The notes: generated by a model not told the origin, from the letters alone. Shown: positions 5,289 through 53,749, counted from the stretch's first letter. The stretch is DNA of 64,000 bases from an uncultured bacterium (GCA_963740635.1 CAVUEQ010000001.1:529026-593025); one strand, 5' to 3'. Made by a program: numbers and translations.

Positions 5289-6227
5289 CTACTTCTTGAT
5301 AGAGAGTCCGTCCAGGGACTTTCGCTTGGGCCCCGGACGGTAGCGGAACTTTCGCCAGATACGGCGGGGCCAGGAAGCGACCAGACCAAACGGCGTGAAG
5401 AGAATCACAATTATAAGCACCGGCAGCCCCCATTGGTACCAACCCGTGACGGCAAAGACCCAGGCGGTGCGGTGGTGATGAGTGGCGCTGTTGGTGAGCG
5501 TGACAGGAAGCAGGCCGAAGAAGGCTCCGGGCCGGGAGAGCTCAAACTTGCGGGTGCTGAGTGGCAGGATAAGGCCGCTGGGGCTGGCAACGGCGCGGCC
5601 CCAGGGCGTGACGCGGGAGGTGAGGGTCGGCTTGAAGGCCAGGGCAGTCTTGGAGCTGTCGGTGTTGCGGTAGGTGAGGCTGCCGGTGATGCCGGATCCG
5701 AATTGCCAGAAGGGCAGATCGAGCCGGGTGATATCGCCGCGGGGCGCGTGCGGGTCGCCATTGGTGAGCGAGAGGAGCGTGCCGACATTGGCGCTCTGGC
5801 GGACGTATGAGGTGCTACTGGAATCCTCGCGCGGCACCGTCTGGAAGAATATGGCGGCGTACACTCCGCCTTGCGGGAGCTTGGAGGCGTCGACGGTGAA
5901 GACCACCCGGATAGCTTCGCGCGGACCGAGCGTAAATTTCGGCAGCCCGACCTTGATGGCGGTGGCATAGTCTGGGTCATCAAAGAAGCCGAGGTTACCG
6001 TCCTGGTCGACTTGGCGGAAGCCTTTGACCTCGGAAATAATATCTACGCTGGCGTCGGCGGGGTTGGAAACGTCGATGAACGCGCTGGACACCGTTCCCG
6101 GCTTGAGAGTGGCGGTATATTGAAGCGGCGCGACCTGCAGGCTGGGCGCGGAGGCGAAGGCGGCAGGCGCGTGGACAAGAACAGCCGCGAGCAGACCAAG
6201 ACTGGCGGTGGCAAGGAATTTTTTCAC
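5289..6227 (-). CDS. DUF916/DUF3324-like membrane-anchored surface protein (Duf-like 2)
   Basis: The GTG start at 6227 overlaps the upstream TGA (GTGA). N-terminus KKFLATASLGLLAAVLVHAPAAFA is a signal peptide. LQVAPLQYTATLKPG..IDVSNP, GGVYAAIFFQTVPR, and a C-terminal TM plus basic tail. The 544-aa track ORF is an unsupported N-terminal extension. Confidence 0.7.
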   Translation of the reverse strand: MKKFLATASLGLLAAVLVHAPAAFASAPSLQVAPLQYTATLKPGTVSSAFIDVSNPADASVDIISEVKGFRQVDQDGNLGFFDDPDYATAIKVGLPKFTLGPREAIRVVFTVDASKLPQGGVYAAIFFQTVPREDSSSTSYVRQSANVGTLLSLTNGDPHAPRGDITRLDLPFWQFGSGITGSLTYRNTDSSKTALAFKPTLTSRVTPWGRAVASPSGLILPLSTRKFELSRPGAFFGLLPVTLTNSATHHHRTAWVFAVTGWYQWGLPVLIIVILFTPFGLVASWPRRIWRKFRYRPGPKRKSLDGLSIKK

Positions 6228-38923: not shown

Positions 38924-39144
38924 TACTTTTTGAGCAGGATGCTGAAAATTACAGACAAAACAAAGATTACGGCCAAGACGATGGTGGCATTAAAAATTAC
39001 GGCCTCGGCGCCGCGGCGGGAGCGGTAAAAGTTGGTGTCGCCGCCGAAGGCCGCGCCCAGGCTGGAGCCGCGGGATTGGATTAGGATCGAGATCATCATC
39101 AGGATGGCGGATACGATGGTGATGGCATTAAACAGGTTTCGCAT
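38923..39144 (-). CDS. secG: Preprotein translocase subunit SecG
   Basis: 73 aa with two TM helices and LIQSRGSSLGAAFGG, the SecG signature. Confidence 0.85.
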   Translation of the reverse strand: MRNLFNAITIVSAILMMISILIQSRGSSLGAAFGGDTNFYRSRRGAEAVIFNATIVLAVIFVLSVIFSILLKK

Positions 39145-39496
39145 GTTTGGGCTCCAGAAGCTCGGTTAGCAGGTAATTGACGACCCAGATGATAACAGTG
39201 GCGACCACGGCGGTCCAGAACGACCGCAGCTGGAAGCTCGGGTAGATCTTGGTGACCAGGTAGAGCATGAACGCGTTAATTACGAGGGTAAACAGGCCCA
39301 GCGTGAGGACGATGGCCGGCAGCGACAGAATGACCACCAGCGGCCGGATGACGGCGTTGACGATCGAGAACAGGAGTGCCGCTATCACCAGCACGCGCAG
39401 TTTGTCGTTGTAGTTGATACTTCCCGTCATGAGCTCGGCGGCGGCCCACAGTCCGAGAAAGTTCACGAGCACGCGCAGGGCGAATTTGCGTAACAT
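39128..39496 (-). CDS. Phage_holin_4_2/DUF360-family membrane protein
   Basis: LVNFLGLWAAAELM..IAALLFSIVNAVIRPLVVILSLPAIVLTLGLFTLVINAFML. Confidence 0.75.
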   Translation of the reverse strand: MLRKFALRVLVNFLGLWAAAELMTGSINYNDKLRVLVIAALLFSIVNAVIRPLVVILSLPAIVLTLGLFTLVINAFMLYLVTKIYPSFQLRSFWTAVVATVIIWVVNYLLTELLEPKHAKPV

Positions 39497-41488: not shown

Positions 41489-42580
41489 CTAGTAATTTCT
41501 CCGCACACTGAACTGAGCGATATCATCGAGGGCCGCCTTAGCAGGGCCCGATAAAGGGGCGTGCACGAGTGTAGCAAGGGCGGACTGAAGATATGATTCA
41601 GCCATAGAAGCGACCTTCTGGTGGGCGCCGGCGTCGTGGAGCACGGTTTTGACGGTCTCAAGCTCGGGGGCGCCGGACTCAGTGTGTCCCCAGACCGTGC
41701 GCAAAGCTTTGGCTTGGGTGGGGGTGGCAAGTTCGAAGGCGTAATGAATGAGCAGCGTGTGCTTGCCCTCGCGCATGTCACTATATATAGGCTTGCCCAG
41801 GGTGGCCTCGTCGCCGTAGACGCCGAGCAGGTCGTCGGCCAGTTGGAAGGCGATACCGAGCGACTCGCCGAATTTGAGGAGCTGCTCCCCTACCGGCCCG
41901 GGGGCGCCCGCGAATATGGCGCCCACTTGCAGCGGGGTGATGAAGCTATACGCCGCCGTCTTGTAGCGCGCGATTTTGAGAAGTTGGTCGGCGGTGGCAG
42001 GCTGGGCGCCGGGGATGGAGACGCTGACGTTGGTGAGCTGGCCGCCCATTTCTTCAAACAGCATGCGGTTAACTTTTGTGAGCGCGGCCAGTTTGGGTTC
42101 GGCGGCAAAATCGGACCCGGTGATAGCGGCCAATCCCAGCGCGCAGCTGGCATTACCGGCCATGAGGGCGTAGGACTGCGCGTGATGGTAGGCTTCGGGG
42201 TCGGATAGATGGCGCCGGCGAAAGACGTCGTAGTAGGTGCCGGCAACGTTGAGACCGCCGTGGCGCACGAGGTCCCGGTCCATAATGTCGTCGTGGATCA
42301 GCAGGAAGTTGTGAAACAGCTCCAGGCTGGCCGCCACCGGCATGAATGAGTCGTCAGCGTGTCCGCCGCTGCCGCGGTAGGCCAGATATGCGAGGTAGGG
42401 CCGCAAGCGCTTCCCGCTGCGCAGGAGCAGGTCGCGCACCACCTCGAGAAGCTGTGCATATACGGGATCAATTGCCTCCGCCTCGGAAATGGTGCTTTCA
42501 CATATAGAGCGCAAAACTTGGTCGATTTGGGTGCGAAAATCACCCAGGCTGACGATGTCGGTTTGGTGTGATTTGCTCAT
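41489..42580 (-). CDS. Polyprenyl diphosphate synthase (trans-IPPS, GGPP/long-chain type)
   Basis: First Asp-rich motif LIHDDIMDRD. Second Asp-rich motif FQLADDLLGVYGD. Confidence 0.85.
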   Translation of the reverse strand: MSKSHQTDIVSLGDFRTQIDQVLRSICESTISEAEAIDPVYAQLLEVVRDLLLRSGKRLRPYLAYLAYRGSGGHADDSFMPVAASLELFHNFLLIHDDIMDRDLVRHGGLNVAGTYYDVFRRRHLSDPEAYHHAQSYALMAGNASCALGLAAITGSDFAAEPKLAALTKVNRMLFEEMGGQLTNVSVSIPGAQPATADQLLKIARYKTAAYSFITPLQVGAIFAGAPGPVGEQLLKFGESLGIAFQLADDLLGVYGDEATLGKPIYSDMREGKHTLLIHYAFELATPTQAKALRTVWGHTESGAPELETVKTVLHDAGAHQKVASMAESYLQSALATLVHAPLSGPAKAALDDIAQFSVRRNY

Positions 42581-44025
42581 ACTGGTTTATCTGATCCAAG
42601 GTGCTCCCGCACGACCTGTGCCTTCGACGGGCCGACGGCGGCCGCCAGCTCATCGAGCGTGGCCAGCTTCACGCCGCGTACCGAACCAAACCGGCGGATG
42701 AGAATTTTGCGGGTGGCGGGGCCGACGCCGGGAATGTCGTCGAGCAGGCTGGCGGTTTGGCGCCGGCCGCGCAGGATGGTCTGGTAAGTGATGGCGAAGC
42801 GATGGGCCTCGTCGCGCACGCGCTGGAGTAGCTGGAGCACGTGGCTGGTATGCGGGAGGAGGATGGATTCGTACCGGGCTTGGCCAGCTTCGGGCCCGGG
42901 CAGGCGGCGGATGATTTCTTCTTCGCGCTTGGCCAGGCCGACCGCCGGCATGTGCAACCCCATGCCGTCGAGCACGCTTAGCGCCGCGGCGAGTTGGGGC
43001 TGGCCGCCGTCGATCAGCAGGAGGTCGGGGGCCGGCCACTCGGCAGCGTGCTTGGGGCCGAACCTCCGGGCGATGACCTCGCGCATATGGGCCGTGTCGT
43101 CGTTGCCCGTGAGGTTCATCTTGAAGCGGCGGTAGTCATCGCGGTGGGCGGCGCCGTCGGTGAACACCACCATGCTGGCGACATTGTCGACCCCGCCGAG
43201 GTGCGAAATGTCGAAGGCCTCGATGCGGCGCGGCGCACCGGCCAGACCCAGCACCTCGGCCAGCCCCGCCAGCGATTGGTCGCGCGACAGGTCGAAGGCC
43301 TCCTTGTCGCCGAAGATCATCTGTTTGCCAAACGAGCGCAAGTCGCTGAGCTGGTCGCGCAGGCGGGCGGCGGCCTCATAGTCGCGGCGTTTGGCGGCCC
43401 GCCCCATGTCACGCTCGAGCGCGGTCATCAGTTTGGTCTGCTCGCCGCGCAAGTACATTTCGAGCCGCCGCACCGCGGCGCGGTAGTCGGCCGCGGTGAC
43501 GGCCCCCTCCTCCGGCCCGGGGCACAGCCCCAGATGATACTGCAGACAGCCGCGCGCCGGCCAGTTGGCGTGGGTGACATACGGAAACACTTTGCGCAGC
43601 AGCCGCATCGCCCGGCGCAGGGCGTCACTGGAGGTAAACGGCCCATAATAATGCGCTTTATCGTCCATCGGCCGCCGCACGTATGAAATAACCGGGAATT
43701 CCTCCGCGCCAATCTTCACGTAAATGAAATTCTTTTCGTCTTTGAGGTCGATGTTGTACTTGGGCTTGTAGCGCTTAATGAATTCGGACTCCAGAAACAG
43801 CGCCTCGGCCTCGCTGCCGACAGTGATCCATTCGGTATCGGCAATATCAGCCACCAGCAGGCGCGTTTTGGGTTCGCGGTGCTTGTTCTGGAAGTAGCTC
43901 ATCACCCGCGACTTCAGCGACGCGGCCTTGCCGATGTAGATTATCTTCTTACCGGCGTCGCGGTGGAAATAAACTCCCGGCTCGGCCGGGAGGGTATTGA
44001 GCTTGGCTTTGAGAGCTTCCGTCAT
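42577..44025 (-). CDS. uvrC: Excinuclease ABC subunit C (compact, 482 aa)
   Basis: GIY-YIG (PGVYFHRD..IIYIGKA..LKSRV), UVR motif (YEAAARLRDQLSDL), endonuclease core (IEAFDISHLGG) and C-terminal HhH (IPGVGPATRKILIRRFGS). Confidence 0.9.
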   Translation of the reverse strand: MTEALKAKLNTLPAEPGVYFHRDAGKKIIYIGKAASLKSRVMSYFQNKHREPKTRLLVADIADTEWITVGSEAEALFLESEFIKRYKPKYNIDLKDEKNFIYVKIGAEEFPVISYVRRPMDDKAHYYGPFTSSDALRRAMRLLRKVFPYVTHANWPARGCLQYHLGLCPGPEEGAVTAADYRAAVRRLEMYLRGEQTKLMTALERDMGRAAKRRDYEAAARLRDQLSDLRSFGKQMIFGDKEAFDLSRDQSLAGLAEVLGLAGAPRRIEAFDISHLGGVDNVASMVVFTDGAAHRDDYRRFKMNLTGNDDTAHMREVIARRFGPKHAAEWPAPDLLLIDGGQPQLAAALSVLDGMGLHMPAVGLAKREEEIIRRLPGPEAGQARYESILLPHTSHVLQLLQRVRDEAHRFAITYQTILRGRRQTASLLDDIPGVGPATRKILIRRFGSVRGVKLATLDELAAAVGPSKAQVVREHLGSDKPV

Positions 44026-44054
44026 GAGTTAATTATACTCTGGAGATTTGGGCA

Positions 44055-44088
44055 TCAAAAAAGACCCGCTGGGCGCGGGCCATTTTTT
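44055..44088 (-). terminator. Rho-independent terminator after the KGG stress-protein gene
   Basis: Minus strand reads GGCCCGCGCCCAGCGGGTC followed by TTTTTTG. Confidence 0.5.
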
Positions 44089-44100
44089 GGATCTGCTTCT

Positions 44101-44346
44101 CTAGGCGGCTTTTTCGGCGTCGCCGCGGTGGCTGTTGGCGCCGCCCTTGCGGGCCGCGGCTCGCACGTCGTCCGGGTTACGGTTGGCAAAGTTACCGGGG
44201 TTGTTGCTCTTGCCTTGCTGGCTTCCGATTTCGGAGTAGAATTCCGGCCCCCGCTTGGCGGTTTCGCGGCCTCCCCTCTCGCCGGCTTCCGCCGTGCTCA
44301 TGGTTTCTTCCTTCTCGGACTTCATACTGTCGTGGCTTGTGGCCAT
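44101..44346 (-). CDS. KGG-repeat general stress protein (YciG/GsiB-like)
   Basis: GERGGRETAKRGPEFYSEIGSQQGKSN...ARKGGANSH. Confidence 0.7.
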   Translation of the reverse strand: MATSHDSMKSEKEETMSTAEAGERGGRETAKRGPEFYSEIGSQQGKSNNPGNFANRNPDDVRAAARKGGANSHRGDAEKAA

Positions 44347-44471
44347 ACACCCTCCAAAATTTAAGCATACCGACAGGTTAGCACCGGGGCTCAGGCCAGT
44401 TAACCGGAGATGTTCTAGAAATGCGCGAAATTAGCCGCTGAGTTTTGCCAGATCAAGATAACCGTTAAGGA

Positions 44472-45023
44472 TTAGCGGACGGGCACAGTCCCGATATTGC
44501 CTTGGGAGTGGCCAAAATGGTTGTACCCGGGCATGAGGGAGTCTGATGGCTGGGCAGCCTGGAAAGTGGCAAGGGCAATGGTGGAAAACGGGCTGCCGGC
44601 CTGAGCTTGGGCGACCGACTGCGACTGCGAAGTGGGCGCGAGCTTGCCGGAGTCCTGGCCGGCGGCTTCGGCCGACACCGCGCCGGCAATCTGGCCCGAG
44701 ATGGCGGGAGCGACGGCCACGGCCGCCGTGGCGACCGGGGCCGGCGCCTCGGCGGCGACCGCCGGGCGCAACGACGCCGACACGAGGCGGCCGGCGCCAA
44801 TGCCGCCGGCGATGGCGGCCGCGGCCCAAATTAGCGTGAGGCCGATGCGGGCCTGCCGGTGGGTGATACCGCGGCGGGCCGGTGCGGCGGCCGGCGGATC
44901 GGAGGCCGGCGCTGACTCCGGCCGCGCCGGGATTACGCCGCCGGGAATGGCCGAGGCCAGGGATTCGTCGAACATCGGCGGCCGGTTGCGGGCGGTTCTA
45001 GCAGGTTGAACGGGCTTGGTCAT
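44472..45023 (-). CDS. Ala/Pro-rich membrane-anchored hypothetical protein
   Basis: A single TM (IGLTLIWAAAAIAGGIGAG) after a basic N-terminus. The antisense ORFs are Arg/Gly shadow. Confidence 0.5.
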   Translation of the reverse strand: MTKPVQPARTARNRPPMFDESLASAIPGGVIPARPESAPASDPPAAAPARRGITHRQARIGLTLIWAAAAIAGGIGAGRLVSASLRPAVAAEAPAPVATAAVAVAPAISGQIAGAVSAEAAGQDSGKLAPTSQSQSVAQAQAGSPFSTIALATFQAAQPSDSLMPGYNHFGHSQGNIGTVPVR

Positions 45024-45144
45024 CAGAAAATCTCCTTATAACACCCTCACTCGTCGAACTATGTACGTGACGCATTATTATAACAGATTTGCGTCACTTT
45101 TATGTCAGCAAGAAGCTAACGCCTCATTATGCTATTTACCGAAC

Positions 45145-45570
45145 CTACGCTGCGACTGACTTATTAAAGTCCCGCCTCAGCTTCTTCACCCGCCGGTCAA
45201 TCCGGCTTACCCTCGCCGCCTCGGCCTTGTAATCATCCTCAAGCATAACCTTCACGCCATCGATTTTAGTACTAAGTTTCGTATCAACGCCATCGATCTT
45301 AGTACCAAGTTTCGACTCAACGTCATCGATCCTAGTACTTAGTCTAGTATCAACGTCTTCGATCTTTTGACCCAATCTTGTCTCGACTTCATCAATCTTT
45401 TGGCCAAGTCTTGCCTCGACGCCATCAATATTCTTGCCCAATCTTGTCTCAACGGTATTGATCTTCTTGTCCAGACTCTGCAAACCTTCCTTTGTTGCAA
45501 GACCCTGCAGATCTTCCTTGGTTGCAAAAACCTGCTTCAAATCTTCAATCGTAAAATCTACATTTGCCAT
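45145..45570 (-). CDS. Small coiled-coil protein built from six 11-residue (hendecad) repeats
   Basis: VETRLGKNIDG / VEARLGQKIDE / VETRLGQKIED / VDTRLSTRIDD / VESKLGTKIDG / VDTKLSTKIDG. The gene sits in a locally low-GC islet. Confidence 0.65.
   Translation of the reverse strand: MANVDFTIEDLKQVFATKEDLQGLATKEGLQSLDKKINTVETRLGKNIDGVEARLGQKIDEVETRLGQKIEDVDTRLSTRIDDVESKLGTKIDGVDTKLSTKIDGVKVMLEDDYKAEAARVSRIDRRVKKLRRDFNKSVAA
45243..45459 (-). repeat. 33-bp in-frame tandem repeats (about 6.5 copies)
   Basis: This is the DNA counterpart of the hendecad repeats. The copies are contiguous, with no unique spacers between them. Confidence 0.7.
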
Positions 45571-45701
45571 ATCAGCCCCTTCAGTAACCTCAGTATAATG
45601 CTTCCACCCTATCCATTATACCGAACATAAGCCGAAACTCCAAACGCTACCATATTCCAAGTGTCCCGAACGCATTTTGGAAAGTTTGCGACTAACCACC
45701 T

Positions 45702-48569
45702 CTAGGCGGTTTGGCTGGCGCGGGCGGTTTGAGGCTTGGCCGGAGTGGGTTGGGCCTCGAAAATGCGCCCCAGGTAGCGGCCGGTGTGGCTGGCCTCCAC
45801 GCGCGCAACCCGCTCCGGGCTGCCGGTGGCAATGATGCGGCCGCCGCCGGTGCCGCCTTCGGGCCCCATGTCGATGAGCCAGTCGGAGCTTTTGATGACG
45901 TCGAGGTTGTGCTCAATGATGAGTACCGAATTGCCGGTGTCCACCAGCGCGTTGAGCACACTGAGCAGCCGCTTGACGTCGTCGAAGTGCAGGCCGGTGG
46001 TGGGCTCGTCGAGGATGTAGAGAGTGCGGCCGGTGCTGCGGCGGGCCAGCTCGGTGGCCAGCTTGATGCGCTGCGCTTCACCACCCGAGAAGGTGGTGGC
46101 GGACTGTCCGAGGTGGATGTAGCCGAGGCCGACGTTATTTAAGGTCTCAAACTTGCGGCGAATGGCCGGGATGTTTTCGAAGAAAGTGACGGCCTCCTCG
46201 ACGGTCATGTCGAGCACGTCCGAAATGTTTTTGCCCTTGTAGTGGATTTCCAGGGCCTCGCGGTTGTAACGTTTTCCCTTGCACTCCTCGCAGGTCACGT
46301 AAACATCGGGCAGGAAGTGCATCTCGATTTTGATAATGCCGTCGCCGCGGCAGAGCTCGCAGCGGCCGCCTTTGACGTTGAAGCTGAAGCGGCCGGCCTT
46401 GTAGCCGCGGATTTTGGCCTCTGGCGTTTGCGCGAACAGCTCGCGGATGTCGCCGAACACGCCGGTGTAGGTGGCGGGGTTTGAGCGCGGGGTGCGGCCG
46501 ATGGGCGACTGGTCGACGGAGATGACCTTGTCGAGGTTGGCCAGGCCGACAATTTCGTCGTGACGCCCCGGCAGGTCGCCGGCGCGGTGGTACACCTGGG
46601 CGAGTTTTTTGGCCAGGATGTCGTTAATGAGGCTGGATTTGCCCGAGCCGGACACGCCCGTCACCGACACCAGCATGCCGAGCGGGATTTCGACGTCGAT
46701 GCCGTCGAGGTTGTGCTCGCGGGCGTTCTTGATGATGAGAGATTTGCGGTTGCCCGGGCGGCGTTTGGACGGCACCGGGATGTGGAGAACGCCGTTTAGG
46801 TACTGGCCGGTGAGGCTTTCGGGCACAGCCGCGACTTCTTCGGGGGTACCGGCCGCCACAATATTGCCGCCGTGGGCACCGGCCAGCGGCCCAACGTCGA
46901 TGACGTAGTCGGCCATGCGGATGGTGTCCTCGTCGTGCTCCACCACAATCACGGTGTTGCCGAGGTCGCGCAGGCGGATGAGGGTGGCGATGAGGCGGTC
47001 GTTGTCGCGCTGGTGGAGGCCGATGCTCGGCTCGTCGAGGATGTACAGCACGCCCATGAGGCTCGAGCCGATCTGGGTGGCCAGCCGGATGCGCTGGGCC
47101 TCGCCGCCGGCCAGGGTGTTGGCGGAGCGGTCGAGGGTGAGGTAGCTGAGGCCGACGTCGCGCAGGAAGCTGAGGCGGGCGCGGATTTCCTTGAGGATCT
47201 GCACGGCGATTTGGGCTTCGCGCGGGCCAAGTTTGAGGTTGTCGAACATTTTGCTAGCCTCGCCGATACTGAGCATGGTGAGGTCCACGATGGACTTGCC
47301 GCCCACGGTGACGGCCAGGATTTCGGGCTTGAGCCGCTTGCCGTGGCAGACCGGGCATTCGCGCTCGGTCATGTATTTCTCAATTTCCTTGCGCACAAAG
47401 TCGGAATCGGTTTCGTGGTAGCGGCGTTCCATGTTGGGGATGACGCCCTCGAAGGTCGTGCGGTAAGTGCGGCCGCCGGGGCCGCGCATGGAGATTTCGG
47501 TGTCGCCCGAGCCGTAGAGCACCACGCGCAGGTCGGCCGGTTTCATTTCGATCACGGGAGTGTCGAGCGAGAAGCCATAGGAGTGCGCCACGCCCTCGAG
47601 CAGTTTGGTGTACCAATTCATGCGGCTGGTCGTCTTGGCCCACGGCCGGATGGCTCCTTCGGCTAGCGTGAGCCGCCGGTTCGGGATGACGGCTTCCGGG
47701 TCGACCTCCAGGCGGGTGCCGAGGCCGGTGCAGTGCGGGCAGGCGCCGTGCGGCGAGTTGAAGCTGAAGTTACGCGGGGCGATGTCGGGCAGGCTGATTT
47801 CGCGGTGGACTGGGCAGGCATAATGCTCGGAGTAGGCCTGCTCGGAGCCGCCATCGGCATGCAGCACCTTGATGGTGCCGTCGCTAAGGTTGAGGCCCTG
47901 CTCCACCGATTCGGTGAGGCGCTGGCGGATTTCGATGCCAGTGGCCACGCGGTCGACCACGGCCTCCACGGTGTGCTTTTTTTGCTTATCCAGAGCGGGA
48001 AATTCGTCTATATCGATGATGGCGCCGTCGACCCGCAGGCGGGTGTAGCCGGCTTTGCGGAGCTCTGCCGCCACCCGCGCGTGCTCGCCCTTTTTGTCGT
48101 CGATAACCGGCGCGAGCAGCATAATGCGGGTGCCCGCCGGCAATTCCAGAATTTGGTCGACAATTTGGCCCGACGTTTGGCGCAGGACCTCGCGCCCGCA
48201 GATCGGGCAATGCGGGACGCCCACGCGCGCGTACAGCAGGCGCAGGTAGTCATAGACTTCCGTGACGGTACCGACCGTAGAGCGCGGGTTGCGCGAGCTG
48301 GATTTTTGGTCAATCGAAATAGCCGGGCTTAAACCATCAATTTGGTCGACGTCGGGCTTCTCCATGAGACCCAAAAATTGCCGGGCGTAAGCCGACAATG
48401 ATTCCACGTACCGGCGCTGGCCCTCGGCGTAAATGGTGTCGAATGCCAGTGAGGATTTGCCGGAGCCGGAGAGCCCGGTGATGACTACCAGCTGGTCTCT
48501 GGGTATCTCGACGTCAATGTTTTTGAGGTTGTGCTCACGGGCTCCGCGCACCACAATCTTATCTGTCAT
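45702..48569 (-). CDS. uvrA: Excinuclease ABC subunit A
   Basis: GGAGGTGT precedes the ATG at 48569. [57 protein letters not shown], two ABC modules and zinc-finger Cys pairs. Confidence 0.95.
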
Positions 48570-48757
48570 ACACCTCCAACCCCGCAGCGCGGTAGGTATT
48601 ACGAGCTGAAATTGTACATGAATGGCGAGCGTTTGGCAATGCACTAGGCAACGGTTGGTATTTTCGAACTTTCACCGCTACCGCGGATTGCCGGCGTGAT
48701 AGATTGGCACAGATTTACGGTTATGGTAATGTGGCAACAACTATTGAAAGGTACCCC

Positions 48758-49192
48758 ATGACAGATAGCCCAGGAGACGTGAAGCCCGAAGGTGAAGTAG
48801 GTTCGGATGTTGAGCCGATAGCGACAGGTGGAACCACCCAGCCGGCCGGCCCGGAAAACGAGCTGACACCAGACGTGCCCGCCGCTGGCGGCGCCGATGT
48901 CGCGCCCGATCCGGTCAGAGTCGCCGCGGCGCAAGATAAGGTGGAGGAAGCGACCGCAAATGTATCTCCGCCCGTGACCGGCCAGCCACCAACGGAAAGC
49001 ACCGGTGCCCAGGGCGAAAGCCTCACGGATGGCCTCGGATCGAGCAAAGAGGCGACCGGCACAGCTGATCCCAACTCGGCATTGCACAACCCCGACTCGG
49101 CGCTAAACACTACGGTCCAAGCACCGGTCGCGCCTGATAAGAAAAATGTGCTGACTTGGGCGGCCGAGAAGCTGGGCATTAAGCGGCCTTAA
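48758..49192 (+). CDS. Acidic, disordered hypothetical protein
   Basis: ATG at 48758 after GAAAGG. Pro/Glu/Thr/Gly-rich, with the ordered tail KKNVLTWAAEKLGIKRP. The antisense ORF of similar length makes this call uncertain. Confidence 0.4.
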   Translation: MTDSPGDVKPEGEVGSDVEPIATGGTTQPAGPENELTPDVPAAGGADVAPDPVRVAAAQDKVEEATANVSPPVTGQPPTESTGAQGESLTDGLGSSKEATGTADPNSALHNPDSALNTTVQAPVAPDKKNVLTWAAEKLGIKRP

Positions 49193-49533
49193 AGCCCCCG
49201 GTTAGTAGCGCCGGGTAGTGCGCAGCACAGATTCGGAGTCGCTTTGGACGGCTTCTGCCGTGTTGGTCGCGCCGCGGAGATCAACGGCCTGTGAGCGTGC
49301 AGTACTGGCCTGCCGCTCTAGATCTGGGATCTCGTTTTCCAGATCGGTGGCTTGGTCACGGAGCCGGACAGCCTCGGTTCGATGGTCTATTGCTTGCTGG
49401 TCGAGCTGATCGGCGGTGGCTTCTAAAGTCTGTGGATTCCATAATATTGCCCCTTCCTTGCTATTAACCGTGCATGTTAGCGCGAGGGGCGGCAGCGGTC
49501 ATTGGGCGATAATACAAAGGTTAGACAATATTA

Positions 49534-49562
49534 TTGATAAAAGTGCAATTATGTAATAAAAT
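49534..49562 (+). promoter_or_regulatory. Putative promoter in AT-rich divergent region
   Basis: TTGATA, 17 nt, TAAAAT, located 52 nt upstream of the GTG at 49614. Confidence 0.35.
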
Positions 49563-49613
49563 TTAGTAATTACCTTCCCATTCCCAATCAGGCCCCGAGA
49601 GGAGGCGGCCGCT

Positions 49614-50000
49614 GTGAGCGACGACGACTACCCAGACCGCCTCCCCACCCCTTACGAACAAATGGAGAAGGCGGCAAGAGAGCACCGGAAGGAAGAGGCG
49701 GGCAGGCTGGAACTGGCTAAAGCGATGGCGGCGGACGAAGAGCGACGCAATGCTGCCCGTTCACGGAGGTCGAAGCCGGCCGCCCGGTCCAGGCCAAGTT
49801 CTGGACCCCAGGTTAGGTACCCGCCGCCGGGCAGTCCCGCCAACCTGCGCCTCGTGAGGTTGGGGGAGCAAATCAATTTGGCCGGGCTACCGCTGGACCA
49901 TTACGAGGCGCCGCACTTGCTCTGGCCCCGCTTCCTGAGGGCCTCGAAGCTGAGCGCATGGCTGCGGCGCCTGATCAACGGCAGCTCAAAGAGAAGGTAA
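49614..50000 (+). CDS. Basic hypothetical protein
   Basis: GAGAGGAGG lies 9 nt before the GTG. 128 aa, with a charged helical N-part. It is followed by a terminator. Confidence 0.5.
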   Translation: MSDDDYPDRLPTPYEQMEKAAREHRKEEAGRLELAKAMAADEERRNAARSRRSKPAARSRPSSGPQVRYPPPGSPANLRLVRLGEQINLAGLPLDHYEAPHLLWPRFLRASKLSAWLRRLINGSSKRR

Positions 50001-50003
50001 CGC

Positions 50004-50036
50004 GCCCGCGACTGTCATGGTCGCGGGCTTCTCTTT
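50004..50036 (+). terminator. Rho-independent terminator
   Basis: GCCCGCGAC-tgtcatg-GTCGCGGGC followed by TTCTCTTT. Confidence 0.55.
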
Positions 50037-50073
50037 GCCCGGCTAGCGGCCGCGGACCGTTTTGCGGGGGGTT
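50035..50073. repeat. Left copy of 39-bp direct repeat (displaced duplicate of the uvrB 3' end)
   Basis: ttgcccggctagcggccgcggacCgttttgcggggggtt matches 51723-51761 at 38/39. The single difference is a synonymous ACC/ACG change in the uvrB reading frame. Confidence 0.8.
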
Positions 50074-50141
50074 ACACCTATTGCATTTTCGGCATTTGTT
50101 CGCCAATATGAGTGGAGAACTATCAGGCAATGGGGGTTATA

Positions 50142-51083
50142 ATGCTTACAGTGAATAAACAGCCAGTGCTAACGACCGAACTCGGTAGGCTCCTTACGGG
50201 CGACTGCCTTGAGCTCATGGGAGAGCTTGAGGCCGAATCTATTGACACATTTTTTGCTGACCCTCCATTTAATTTAAGCAAAGACTATGGGCCGCACGTC
50301 GACGACAACCTGCCAGAGGGTGAGTACCTAGCCTGGTGCTTCCGCTGGATCGACGAAGCGGTCCGCGTACTCAAGCCAGGGGGCTCCTTTTTCCTTTATA
50401 ACCTGCCCAAGTGGAACGTCTTGCTAGCAAGCTATGTCTCACGCCGGCTAAACTTCCGCAACTGGATTACGATTGAGCTTACTTTTTCGCTTCCTATCCA
50501 GGGCCGGCTATATCCTTCGAACTACTCGCTTCTCTATTTTGTAAAGGGGAAGAAACCAAATACTTTCAACCCACCCCGGGTACCAATGCAAGTATGCCGG
50601 CATTGTGGTGGCGAGATCAAAGACTATGGTGGCTATAAGGGCAAGATGAATCCGAAGGGCATATCGCTTTCTGACGTCTGGACTGATATTCCCCCGGTGC
50701 GGCACCAGAAATATAAAACGCGTGAAGCCAACGCGCTCAGCTTAAAACTGATGGATAGAATTCTCGATATCTCAACGGTTGAGAGTGACGTGGTACTCGA
50801 CCCGTTTGGTGGAAGTGGCACAACCTATGTTGCCGCTGAGCTCAAGGGAAGGCGATGGATTGGAATGGAAATATCCACGACCAGTGCCATCGTTGACCGC
50901 TTCGCACACCTTGAACTTGACAGGGCTCACCTCATCGAGATTGAGAAGCGAAAGAACACCCTCTTCACGCCCGAGGCTCTCTCCTTGAGGAAGAAGTCTG
51001 GTCTAACTAATGACAAGTACAGGCTAGAAACGACGGCTCACCAACACGGCCTTTTCTTAAGCGCGACTCAGGATTCAGAGTAA
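50142..51083 (+). CDS. Beta-class N4-cytosine/N6-adenine DNA methyltransferase
   Basis: Motif IV (FFADPPFNL) precedes motif I (LDPFGGSGTTYVAA), the order typical of N4/N6 beta-class enzymes. ATG at 50142 after GGGGG. Confidence 0.85.
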   Translation: MLTVNKQPVLTTELGRLLTGDCLELMGELEAESIDTFFADPPFNLSKDYGPHVDDNLPEGEYLAWCFRWIDEAVRVLKPGGSFFLYNLPKWNVLLASYVSRRLNFRNWITIELTFSLPIQGRLYPSNYSLLYFVKGKKPNTFNPPRVPMQVCRHCGGEIKDYGGYKGKMNPKGISLSDVWTDIPPVRHQKYKTREANALSLKLMDRILDISTVESDVVLDPFGGSGTTYVAAELKGRRWIGMEISTTSAIVDRFAHLELDRAHLIEIEKRKNTLFTPEALSLRKKSGLTNDKYRLETTAHQHGLFLSATQDSE

Positions 51084-51686
51084 GGCTCGTCCGTCTGTTC
51101 CTTTGGGTATTCGCCCCGCGCCCTCGTCGAAGCCATTCTGCTCCACAACGAGCACGAACACGACACCTTCCGTGTATGGCAGGCTTTCCCATAGGGGCAG
51201 GTAGGGCGTTATTTCCTTGTAGTTGCCCACACGATCAGTGAGAAATGGGTACAAGTTATTGGACGGAAGCACTAACACTCCTCCAGCCAGCTCTTTTCTC
51301 AGCACCCCCAAACAGATTTTGTTTAGGGCTCGGTGGCTAGATGAGATATTTCCGGTTTCCCATTCTATGGCAAAAAGGCCATACGGTGTGCTCTTGACCG
51401 CATCAAGCGGCCCAGTTCCTGCCACTCCAGTTGATCGGACGCGCAACTCATTCTGCCAGCCTTTCGACTTCAGGAAGGTGATGCAGGCCTCCTTAATTGG
51501 CTTAACTCCGTTACCCTCGCCCCGCTTTTTGCCTTTGGATTTCGGGTCCAAGAAGAAGCCCTTAGCTCCAGGCGGCCAACTTATCTCTTCAATTGCCTGT
51601 TCAATCTCGGTAATTGCCTGCTTGATGTCCGGAGACTGGGCAAACTTTCCAGCATAGACTATGTCCTGGCGGTGGACTATTTTCAT
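51075..51686 (-). CDS. Type II restriction endonuclease, BamHI-like
   Basis: Compared with my recollection of R.BamHI: NGVKPIKEACITFLK vs NGVVPIKELCYTLLE; GPLDAV vs GPIDVY (Asp94); IEWETGNISSSHRALNKICLG vs MEFETGNISSAHRSMNKLLLG (Glu111/Glu113); LTDRVGNYKEITPY vs LTDRVTNFEELEPY; IPKGTDG vs IPKGSDG. Confidence 0.8.
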   Translation of the reverse strand: MKIVHRQDIVYAGKFAQSPDIKQAITEIEQAIEEISWPPGAKGFFLDPKSKGKKRGEGNGVKPIKEACITFLKSKGWQNELRVRSTGVAGTGPLDAVKSTPYGLFAIEWETGNISSSHRALNKICLGVLRKELAGGVLVLPSNNLYPFLTDRVGNYKEITPYLPLWESLPYTEGVVFVLVVEQNGFDEGAGRIPKGTDGRALL

Positions 51687-51722
51687 CAGATGACTATCTT
51701 GTTACTGGTGAAGTATAACAGC

Positions 51723-51761
51723 TTGCCCGGCTAGCGGCCGCGGACGGTTTTGCGGGGGGTT
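51723..51761. repeat. Right copy of 39-bp direct repeat (functional uvrB 3' end + 8 nt)
   Basis: See 50035-50073. This copy encodes ..TPRKTVRGR* of UvrB. Confidence 0.8.
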
Positions 51762-53749
51762 TTGGTGGCGCCACGCCCGGGCGCACTTGCAGACTTGAGT
51801 TCGTCGATCTGGTCGCGCAGGAGGGCGGCCCGCTCGAATTGGAGGTTTTGGGCGGCGAGCTGCATTTGGGCGGTGAGGTCGCGGACGAGCTTGCTGCGCT
51901 CTTCTTTGGGGATGTCTTCGGGGCGGATTTCGCGCACGTCGGCGGTTTCGGCCTCGATTTGGGCCTGCATGCGCTCCCCCATCGCCTTTTTGATGCCCTC
52001 GGGGGTGATGCCGTGCTCGCGGTTGTAGGCCTCTTGGATCTCGCGGCGGGCGGTAGTGGTGTCGATGGCGGTGCGCATGGAGTCGGTGACGCGGTCGGCA
52101 TACATTATCACGCGGCCTTCCACGTGGCGGGCGGCCCGGCCGATGGTCTGGATGAGAGCCGAGGCGCCGCGCAGGAAGCCCTCTTTGTCGGCGTCGAGGA
52201 TGGCCACCAGGGAGACTTCGGGCAGGTCGAGGCCCTCGCGCAGGAGGTTGATGCCGACCAGCACGTCGTAGACGCCGGCGCGCAGGTCCTGGAGGATGTC
52301 GACGCGGTCGAGGGTGTTGACCTCGGAGTGCAGGTATTGGACCTTCACGCCGAGCTCGGACAGGTACTCGGAGAGGTCTTCGGCCATGCGCTTGGTGAGG
52401 GTGGTGACGAGCACGCGCTGGTGTTTGGCGACCGTGGCGCGGATTTCGGCGATGAGGTCGTCGACCTGGCCCTTCACGGGGCGCACGTCGATGGCCGGAT
52501 CGAGCAGGCCGGTGGGGCGGATGACCTGCTCGACGACCTGGGAGCTCTTGGACAGCTCGAATTCGGCCGGAGTGGCGCTCACGTACACGGCCTGGTTGAT
52601 GTGGCGTTCAAATTCCGGATATTTCAGCGGGCGGTTGTCGAACGCGGAGGGCAGGCGGAAGCCATATTCCACCAGCGTTTCCTTGCGGGCACGGTCGCCG
52701 TTGTACATGCCGCGGACTTGGGGCAGCGTGATATGTGATTCGTCGACGAACAGCAGGAAATCGTCCGGGAAATAATCCATGAGCGTGGCGGGTTGCTCGC
52801 CGGGCTCGCGGTCGGATAGGAAGCGCGAGTAGTTTTCGATGCCGGCCACCATGCCGGTTTCGGCCAGCATCTCCATGTCGAATTTGGTGCGCTGTTTTAG
52901 CCGCTGGGCCTCCAGGTTTTTGCCGGCGGACTCGAGCTGGAGCAGGCGCATGTCGAGCTCCTCGCCGATTTTCTGGACCGCGCGCTGGAGTTTCTCCTGA
53001 GGCGTGACGTAATGCTTGGCCGGGAAGATTTTGAGATCCTCGCGCTCCGCGAGCATTTCGCCGGTGAGCGGGTCGACCTGCCGGATGCGCTCCAGCTCGT
53101 CGCCGAAGAATTCCAGGCGGTAGGCTACCTCCTCGCCGATCGGGTAAATCTCGAGCACATCTCCGCGCACCCGGAATTTGCCGCGCGAGAAGTCGATGTC
53201 GTTGCGCTCATATTGGATGTCGGTGAGCTGCCGCAGGAGTTTGTCGCGTTTGCGGACCTCACCGCGCCGCAGATCGATGGTCATGGTGGTGTAATCGCTG
53301 ACATTGCCGAGGCCATAAATGCAGCTTACCGAAGCCACAATCAGCACATCGCGGCGAGTCAGCAGGCTCATGGTGGCGGCGTGGCGCAGGCGGTCGATCT
53401 CTTCATTAATGCTGGAATCTTTCTCAATGAAGGTGTCGGAGCGCGGGATGTAAGCCTCGGGCTGGTAGTAGTCGTAATAACTAACGAAATATTGGACGGC
53501 GTTGTCGGGGAAAAATTGCTTGAACTCGCCGTAAAGCTGGGCCGCCAGGGTCTTGTTGTGGCTGAGCACGAGAGTGGGGCGCTGCAATTGCTGCACGATG
53601 TTGGCCATGGTGAAGGTTTTGCCGGAACCGGTGACGCCCAGCAGAGTCTGTTCGCGGTCGCCGCGGCTCAGCCCCGCGAGGAGCTGTTCGATAGCCTGGG
53701 GCTGGTCGCCGGCGGGGGCGTATTTGCTGGTGAGTTTGAATTGCGCCAT
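51731..53749 (-). CDS. uvrB: Excinuclease ABC subunit B
   Basis: [12 protein letters not shown] (Walker A), [11 protein letters not shown] (DExH), helicase motifs, and a C-terminal UVR motif [14 protein letters not shown]. Confidence 0.95.

Follow-up and report, generated by a model that had tools for sequence, protein, structure and literature searches.

A restriction-modification (RM) cassette of the BamHI type was analyzed in a 64,000-nucleotide stretch of DNA from an uncultured bacterium (GCA_963740635.1 CAVUEQ010000001.1:529026-593025), which is referred to as the window; all positions are counted from its first letter, and those between 48,570 and 51,761 are of main concern. The host is a Saccharimonadia-type bacterium of the candidate phyla radiation (CPR). 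On the minus strand of the window, uvrB (51731-53749, 672 aa) and uvrA (45702-48569, 955 aa) are co-oriented and lie 3,161 bp apart. The uvrB gene is intact and contains the Pfam domains UvrB_inter, UvrB, Helicase_C and UVR, and uvrA contains UvrA_inter and UvrA_DNA-bind. Between them lies a cassette of 1,649 bp (50074-51722), which is bracketed by two 39-bp direct repeats and encodes only an endonuclease, R (51075-51686, minus strand, 203 aa), and a methyltransferase, M (50130-51083, plus strand, with alternative starts at 50112 and 50142). The two genes converge, with a 9-bp overlap of their 3' ends. R is co-oriented with uvrB and starts 44 nt past its stop codon. Non-coding DNA within the cassette is limited to 36 bp between the right repeat and the start of R and to about 56-68 bp before M.

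The right copy of the repeat (51723-51761) is the terminus of uvrB itself. On the minus strand it reads A-ACC-CCC-CGC-AAA-ACC-GTC-CGC-GGC-CGC-TAG followed by CCGGGCAA, encoding ...TPRKTVRGR*. An earlier reading of the window, made from the sequence alone (hereafter the sequence-only reading), had described this copy as the last ten codons of uvrB plus the stop; it was right about the uvrB terminus, and the actual extent is the last nine codons and one base, the stop, and the 8 bp beyond it. The left copy (50035-50073) is a non-coding pseudo-terminus of uvrB that matches the right one at 38 of 39 positions, the lone mismatch (ACG in place of ACC) being synonymous for threonine. A repeat search across 48.0-52.5 kb returned this pair as the one outstanding direct repeat. 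When up to three mismatches were allowed, the 39-mer occurred exactly twice in the whole window and in none of 100 shuffles. Moreover, the GC content of the cassette is about 0.51, whereas the uvr genes reach about 0.64 and the window averages 0.604, and a foreign origin is thus supported by composition. The lower-GC cassette and its flanking duplication of the uvrB end, with a single synonymous ACC/ACG difference, had both been noted in the sequence-only reading and were confirmed here. An assembly artefact was also considered and ruled out, because an independent short-read contig (Logan L001, 3,784 bp, run ERR11718635) shows the entire structure, from the uvrB tail through R, M and the repeat to orf128, a small gene beyond the left repeat; the two independent assemblies agree.

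R is a Type IIP endonuclease of the BamHI/OkrAI family. It scores 175.4 bits on the Pfam BamHI profile (PF02923; cutoff 22.8; 9.2e-52), covering profile positions 1-156 of 157, and in the PDB it matches OkrAI (3odh, 1.2e-50) and BamHI (1bam, 6.5e-23). Identity to OkrAI is approximately 48% across 178 residues. The OkrAI structure paper assigned catalysis to E71, D86, E99 and E101, and the reading of GGATCC to N104, R110, D142, R143, D189, G190 and R191. The catalytic tetrad is kept in R as E80, D95, E108 and E110, for which the BamHI counterparts are E77, D94, E111 and E113, and the base-reading residues N113, R119, D151, R152, D198, G199 and R200 are all identical to the OkrAI set. In a comparison of 17 family members, 45-79% identical to the R of the window, nine of these eleven residues are invariant and the other two (E80 and R200) nearly so. 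Since all eleven catalytic and recognition residues are identical to those of OkrAI, the predicted target of R is GGATCC. The profile match, the OkrAI match and the conserved tetrad bear out the earlier suggestion of a BamHI-family endonuclease with an intact active site.

M is a beta-class N6/N4 amino-methyltransferase of 313-317 aa (317 aa as called on L001). It matches the Pfam family N6_N4_Mtase (PF01555, 4e-40), and its motifs follow the beta-class order, with DPPF (residue 44) before FGGSG (residue 226), in agreement with the DPPF...FGGSGTT assignment made previously. The best PDB match is M.MboIIA (1e-24). Additionally, M is 53% identical (1e-124) to the 417-aa methyltransferase of the BamHI-type M-C-R system of Desulfocapsa, in which C is a controller gene, and 61-69% identical to the methyltransferases paired with the closest homologues of R (L083-L087). 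Because it is orthologous to methyltransferases found beside other BamHI-family endonucleases, M is, as judged by homology, the cognate partner type of such systems. OkrAI has been expressed in a host premodified by M.BamHI, the modification of which blocks OkrAI, and M.BamHI is an N4-methylcytosine enzyme. By analogy, M would be expected to protect the inner cytosine of GGATCC at N4.

The cassette is thus a compact, apparently intact and horizontally acquired RM unit of the BamHI/OkrAI type, from a known enzyme family and with a probable mode of insertion that is likewise known. As to how it arrived, we favor, with moderate confidence, an insertion with long target duplication into the end of uvrB by a unit that brought no recombinase of its own. 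Furuta, Abe and Kobayashi (2010; PMC2853133) reported RM inserts with long target duplications, in which repeats of 46-47 bp were identical at 43-47 of the 46-47 positions. Their cases were defined by the presence of both R and M inside the insert, an insert shorter than 20 kb, a direct duplication longer than 30 bp that does not recur elsewhere in the genome, and the absence of a mobile element. The mode is favored because the present locus, with recurrence of the repeat assessed across the 64-kb window, shows every feature that those authors used, bar an empty site. No integrase, excisionase, transposase, resolvase or other recombinase was found with Pfam in the cassette or among the 20 neighboring genes at 28-64 kb of the window, which have housekeeping functions only. 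In the proposed course of events, the R-M unit would have inserted between the last codons of uvrB and a hairpin shared by uvrB and the convergent orf128, with R and M moving without a transposase or integrase of their own. The 39 bp of target would have been duplicated in the process; uvrB would therefore have kept an intact 3' end, and a dead copy of that end would have been left beside the old hairpin. The site before insertion would have read ...GGCGCCACCAAA-[one 39-mer]-AGAGAAGCCCGCGAC. Once in place, M would methylate GGATCC in the host DNA, and R would cut unmodified incoming DNA.

Several observations weigh against parts of this reading. No empty site or strain variant was found, and we infer the polarity of the event (an insertion here, not a deletion elsewhere) and the single-copy ancestral state. 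The search compared UvrB with one genome per species and with 5.8 billion proteins, together with the context of the nearest relatives; it also included the UvrB C-terminus against JGI metagenomes, orf128 against the 5.8 billion proteins, and exact-protein look-ups of R, orf128 and UvrB. These collections contained no strain-level relative, the nearest UvrB being 88% identical, and in the relatives the DNA past the uvrB stop is unrelated. Homologous cassettes elsewhere are without convincing comparable flanking duplications. Furthermore, the window shows no specific shortage of GGATCC (8 sites observed versus 9.4 expected under a fourth-order Markov model), and there is no genomic footprint of long-term activity. 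With respect to the methyltransferase, motif IV usually reads DPPF or DPPY in N6-adenine enzymes and SPPY in N4-cytosine enzymes, with documented exceptions such as M.Sbo13I. In M this motif reads DPPF, the form more often seen in N6-adenine enzymes, and adenine methylation of GATC does not block BamHI. Owing to these two points, the base that M protects is uncertain. Finally, the closest homologues without a C gene adjoin tyrosine integrases, and site-specific integration, too, classically duplicates the 3' end of a gene.

The last two points suggest a rival explanation, in which the 39-bp repeats would be the attL and attR sites of a Campbell-type integration. A small circle carrying the R-M pair and a uvrB 3' end could have been integrated by a tyrosine integrase acting in trans, or the cassette could be an internally deleted remnant of an integrase-bearing element, comparable to a cis-mobilizable element (CIME). 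Duplication of the end of a gene that itself stays intact is typical of such events, and recombination of attP with an attB that was not identical to it would naturally leave a single mismatch. CPR integrative or defense islands carry close homologues of the R-M pair as cargo, and since the same module recurs in unrelated contexts of other CPR genomes, it is mobile. In L179-L188, the pair lies beside a tyrosine integrase (Phage_integrase), a large serine recombinase and DUF5659, accompanied in L179-L182 by an excisionase-like HTH_17 gene. It adjoins QatB and TatD genes in L179, L180 and L183, with a KAP NTPase gene in L179 and L180. In L083, the pair adjoins an AIPR gene and a pair of genes for a Replic_Relax relaxase and a type IV secretion system (T4SS) coupling protein. 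Against site-specific integration stands the absence of a recombinase from the cassette and from 28-64 kb of the window. Moreover, non-coding stretches of only 36 bp and about 56 bp leave almost no room for arm-type recombinase sites, no att-like repeats surround the integrase-linked homologues within the DNA fetched, and the target is not a tRNA gene. Overall, we regard an integrase-driven origin as unlikely, although it is the main rival to insertion with target duplication. Junction microhomology (CGGGCAA) and promoter sequence shared with L184, L179, L083 and L084 were also considered and set aside, as 253 to 1,960 of 2,000 shuffles scored equally well and MAFFT was uninformative.

The synonymous mismatch between the repeats bears on another explanation, in which a related donor with the cassette already in place at uvrB would have passed it on, by homologous recombination or by homology-facilitated illegitimate recombination. 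The duplication would then have arisen earlier, in a different lineage, with ACC and ACG distinguishing donor from recipient. The sequence-only reading had offered arrival with a uvrB fragment of a related donor and duplication of the target as alternatives. A silent third-position difference is what would be expected of orthologous uvrB alleles, and the UvrB tail, being conserved across the clade, could supply the homology; the UvrB of P0151 ends in the same TPRKTVRGR, and the right copy encodes a tail of the form usual in this lineage. The best UvrB match in the one-genome-per-species set is 81% identical, and that in the 5.8-billion-protein collection is 88% identical. However, such an import would only place the duplication event in a different genome. 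An R-M pair at uvrB was absent from all of the 100+ relatives examined, and both flanks of the cassette are otherwise contiguous and host-like in GC content. Import from a donor therefore appears distinctly improbable to us.

Insertion with target duplication would also have altered the transcriptional surroundings of uvrB. A GC-rich hairpin (50004-50036, stem 50004-50028) adjoins the left repeat and is followed by a T-tract on the plus strand. The sequence-only reading had called it the original terminator hairpin, which as a reference to uvrB was not upheld. Because the T-tract is on the plus strand, the hairpin is assigned to the convergent orf128; formally, it is the intrinsic terminator of that gene, at most bidirectional and possibly serving uvrB before the insertion. 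The orf128 gene (49614-50000, plus strand) is an ORFan convergent with uvrB and belongs to the pre-existing interval, not to the cassette. It encodes an Arg/Pro-rich protein, is preceded by AGGAGG and by a promoter-like site matching at 10 of 12 positions (49534-49562), and has a strong intrinsic terminator. No homologue was found among 5.8 billion proteins, and there was no Pfam or NCBIfam match.

The insertion would have moved this hairpin 1.7 kb away from uvrB, and the 44-nt spacer between uvrB and R forms no stable hairpin (fold z=+0.6). A consensus scan indicated that a promoter for R is weak or absent. At the cassette edge, TGTTATACT lies 25 nt before the start codon of R and looks like an extended -10 element. 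In L179 and L184, R is preceded by comparable TATACT boxes, a likeness that is without statistical support against shuffles. A small helix-turn-helix (HTH) C gene lies upstream of R in L083, in L084-87 and in the Desulfocapsa plasmid system. No C homologue was found in the 64-kb window (tblastn E>0.6), and nothing of a C-gene remnant was detectable in the 36 bp upstream of R. Other close homologues, P0008 and P0009 (73-75% identical to R), likewise have no C gene, so that its absence reflects natural variation rather than truncation; the sequence-only reading had not mentioned this absence. Given that there is no C protein and neither a terminator nor a stable structure between uvrB and R, R is probably expressed by read-through from uvrB together with the weak extended -10 element TGTTATACT. 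In the related C-R-M system of L084, two tandem 21-nt repeats (TTATATGAGTAC...) at 5457-5500, directly upstream of the C gene, resemble a C-box operator.

Eight GGATCC sites are present in the window, namely the three listed in the sequence-only reading (5694, 13925 and 55173) and five others. Protective methylation would therefore be needed if R is active. Avoidance of GGATCC was evaluated as a sign of activity and rejected, as a twofold deficit relative to dinucleotide shuffles vanishes under the fourth-order Markov model and other palindromes are more depleted. The absence of long-term avoidance fits a recent acquisition. It would also fit a decaying or inactive remnant, in which R is silenced or non-functional, M is an orphan and no restriction function is left; the missing C gene and the weak or absent R promoter could be read in the same way. 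Nevertheless, both open reading frames have their full length and do not differ between the two assemblies, R retains its complete set of catalytic and recognition residues, and close homologues commonly occur as C-less R/M pairs arranged in the same way. We consider the loss of function very improbable.

A single difference between assemblies was located at one of these sequences. Over the 12,686 bp that the window shares with two Logan contigs, L001 and L177, there is a discrepancy of just one base: at 49434-49440 the window has GGATTCC and L001 has GGATCC, and the additional base shifts the reading frame of orf79 at codons 2-3. With three GGATCC sites in the compared DNA, simple arithmetic puts the chance that a random difference hits one of them at about 0.14%; the remaining two sites are identical between the assemblies. 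The difference may reflect either a real polymorphism that destroys the site or an erroneous consensus where the site is methylated or otherwise modified. A systematic corruption of GGATCC by methylation-driven basecalling was examined through five other GGATTCC/GGAATCC sites and all 40 one-base-insertion variants. None involved a repairable frameshift, and the idea is unsupported beyond the single case. A more speculative scenario, which we also hold to be improbable, would combine several of these elements. An R-M module flanked by att sites and devoid of an integrase would be moved in trans into the uvrB 3' end by the recombinases of co-resident CPR elements, read-through would couple restriction to uvrB expression, and the extra base in GGATTCC may be a footprint of activity, either as a methylation-dependent basecalling error or through selection against the site.

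The remainder of the uvrB-uvrA interval contains two further small genes. The orf79 gene (49202-49442, minus strand) is a small coiled-coil gene that is co-oriented with uvrB and frameshifted in the window, and it has weak positional homologues in relatives (36-40% identity). The orf162 gene (48704-49192, plus strand; called as 144 aa from 48758) encodes an acidic, low-complexity protein without detectable homologues in the loci examined. The uvrB-uvrA spacing amounts to tens of bases in Firmicutes. Among the Saccharimonadia relatives, it is 0.7 kb in L008, 1.1 kb in L093, 2.6 kb in L168, 3.5 kb in L091, 6.8 kb in L169 and about 10 kb in L002. The spacer is hypervariable in this group and consists of small, mostly unannotated genes that differ even among relatives at 83-88% UvrB identity. 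Since unrelated small genes fill 0.7-10 kb at this position in all Saccharimonadia relatives examined, the split between uvrB and uvrA is old and clade-wide, and the RM cassette is the only recent addition. The earlier description of a co-oriented uvrB-uvrA pair with a gap of about 3 kb was accurate, whereas accessory DNA as the cause of the split was not supported.

Three further features of the surrounding DNA were recorded. The uvrC gene (42577-44025) is co-oriented with uvrA and uvrB, forming a loose uvrB/uvrA/uvrC cluster (42577-53749). Just downstream of uvrA, a 141-aa protein (45145-45570, minus strand) is composed of 11-residue repeats (…TRLGQKIDEVE…) and matches the Apolipoprotein A1/A4/E repeat family below threshold. 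A 122-aa protein (39128-39496, minus strand) matches Phage_holin_4_2 (5.7e-27) in a neighborhood that is otherwise housekeeping.

Although this is otherwise an ordinary Type II RM system, the locus provides a clean and compact CPR example of an RM unit that apparently moves without its own recombinase and leaves an essential repair gene undamaged. Well-defined junctions such as this one, with 39 bp, one mismatch and almost no non-coding cargo, are useful material for studying how long target duplications arise. Additionally, the locus predicts a GGATCC methylation mark that would be readable from long-read data of the uncultivated host.

The cassette was compared with several known systems. 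At the level of the enzyme, R and OkrAI are both 'minimal' endonucleases of about 200 aa, with the same fold family and the same E-D-E-E active site, and R is identical at all positions that contact GGATCC in the co-crystals of OkrAI and BamHI. R differs from OkrAI and BamHI in its host, a CPR bacterium of the Saccharimonadia, and in the position of its gene directly behind uvrB without a controller gene. The classical BamHI-type M-C-R systems, represented by the Desulfocapsa sulfexigens plasmid (NC_020305) and by BamHI of B. amyloliquefaciens, encode R and M proteins homologous to those of the cassette. In those systems, a divergent M of about 420 aa has an N-terminal extension, and the HTH C gene overlaps R. 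In contrast, the M of the cassette has 313-317 aa, is convergent with R with a 9-bp overlap, and is not accompanied by C. The integrase-borne R-M cargo of CPR genomes (L179-L188) is the same module, with 73-75% R identity, no C gene, and convergent, overlapping genes, an arrangement of R and M that is also found in L084 as well as in L184. Like cis-mobilizable att-flanked elements, the cassette has direct repeats that overlap the 3' end of a gene. It differs from integrase-borne elements in that no integrase is found in or near it, and as an element it would measure just 1.65 kb and have hardly any non-coding arms. In organization, the cassette resembles the long-target-duplication cases of Furuta et al., with which it shares a short insert containing only R and M, a duplication of more than 30 bp (38/39 identical), no mobility genes, and a deviant GC content. 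Those cases were defined against an empty site in a conspecific genome, whereas the insertion proposed here is read from the sequence of one genome. Unlike in those cases, the duplicated segment holds the stop and last codons of a housekeeping gene, and, as judged by the list in PMC2853133, the phylum is new for insertion with long target duplication.

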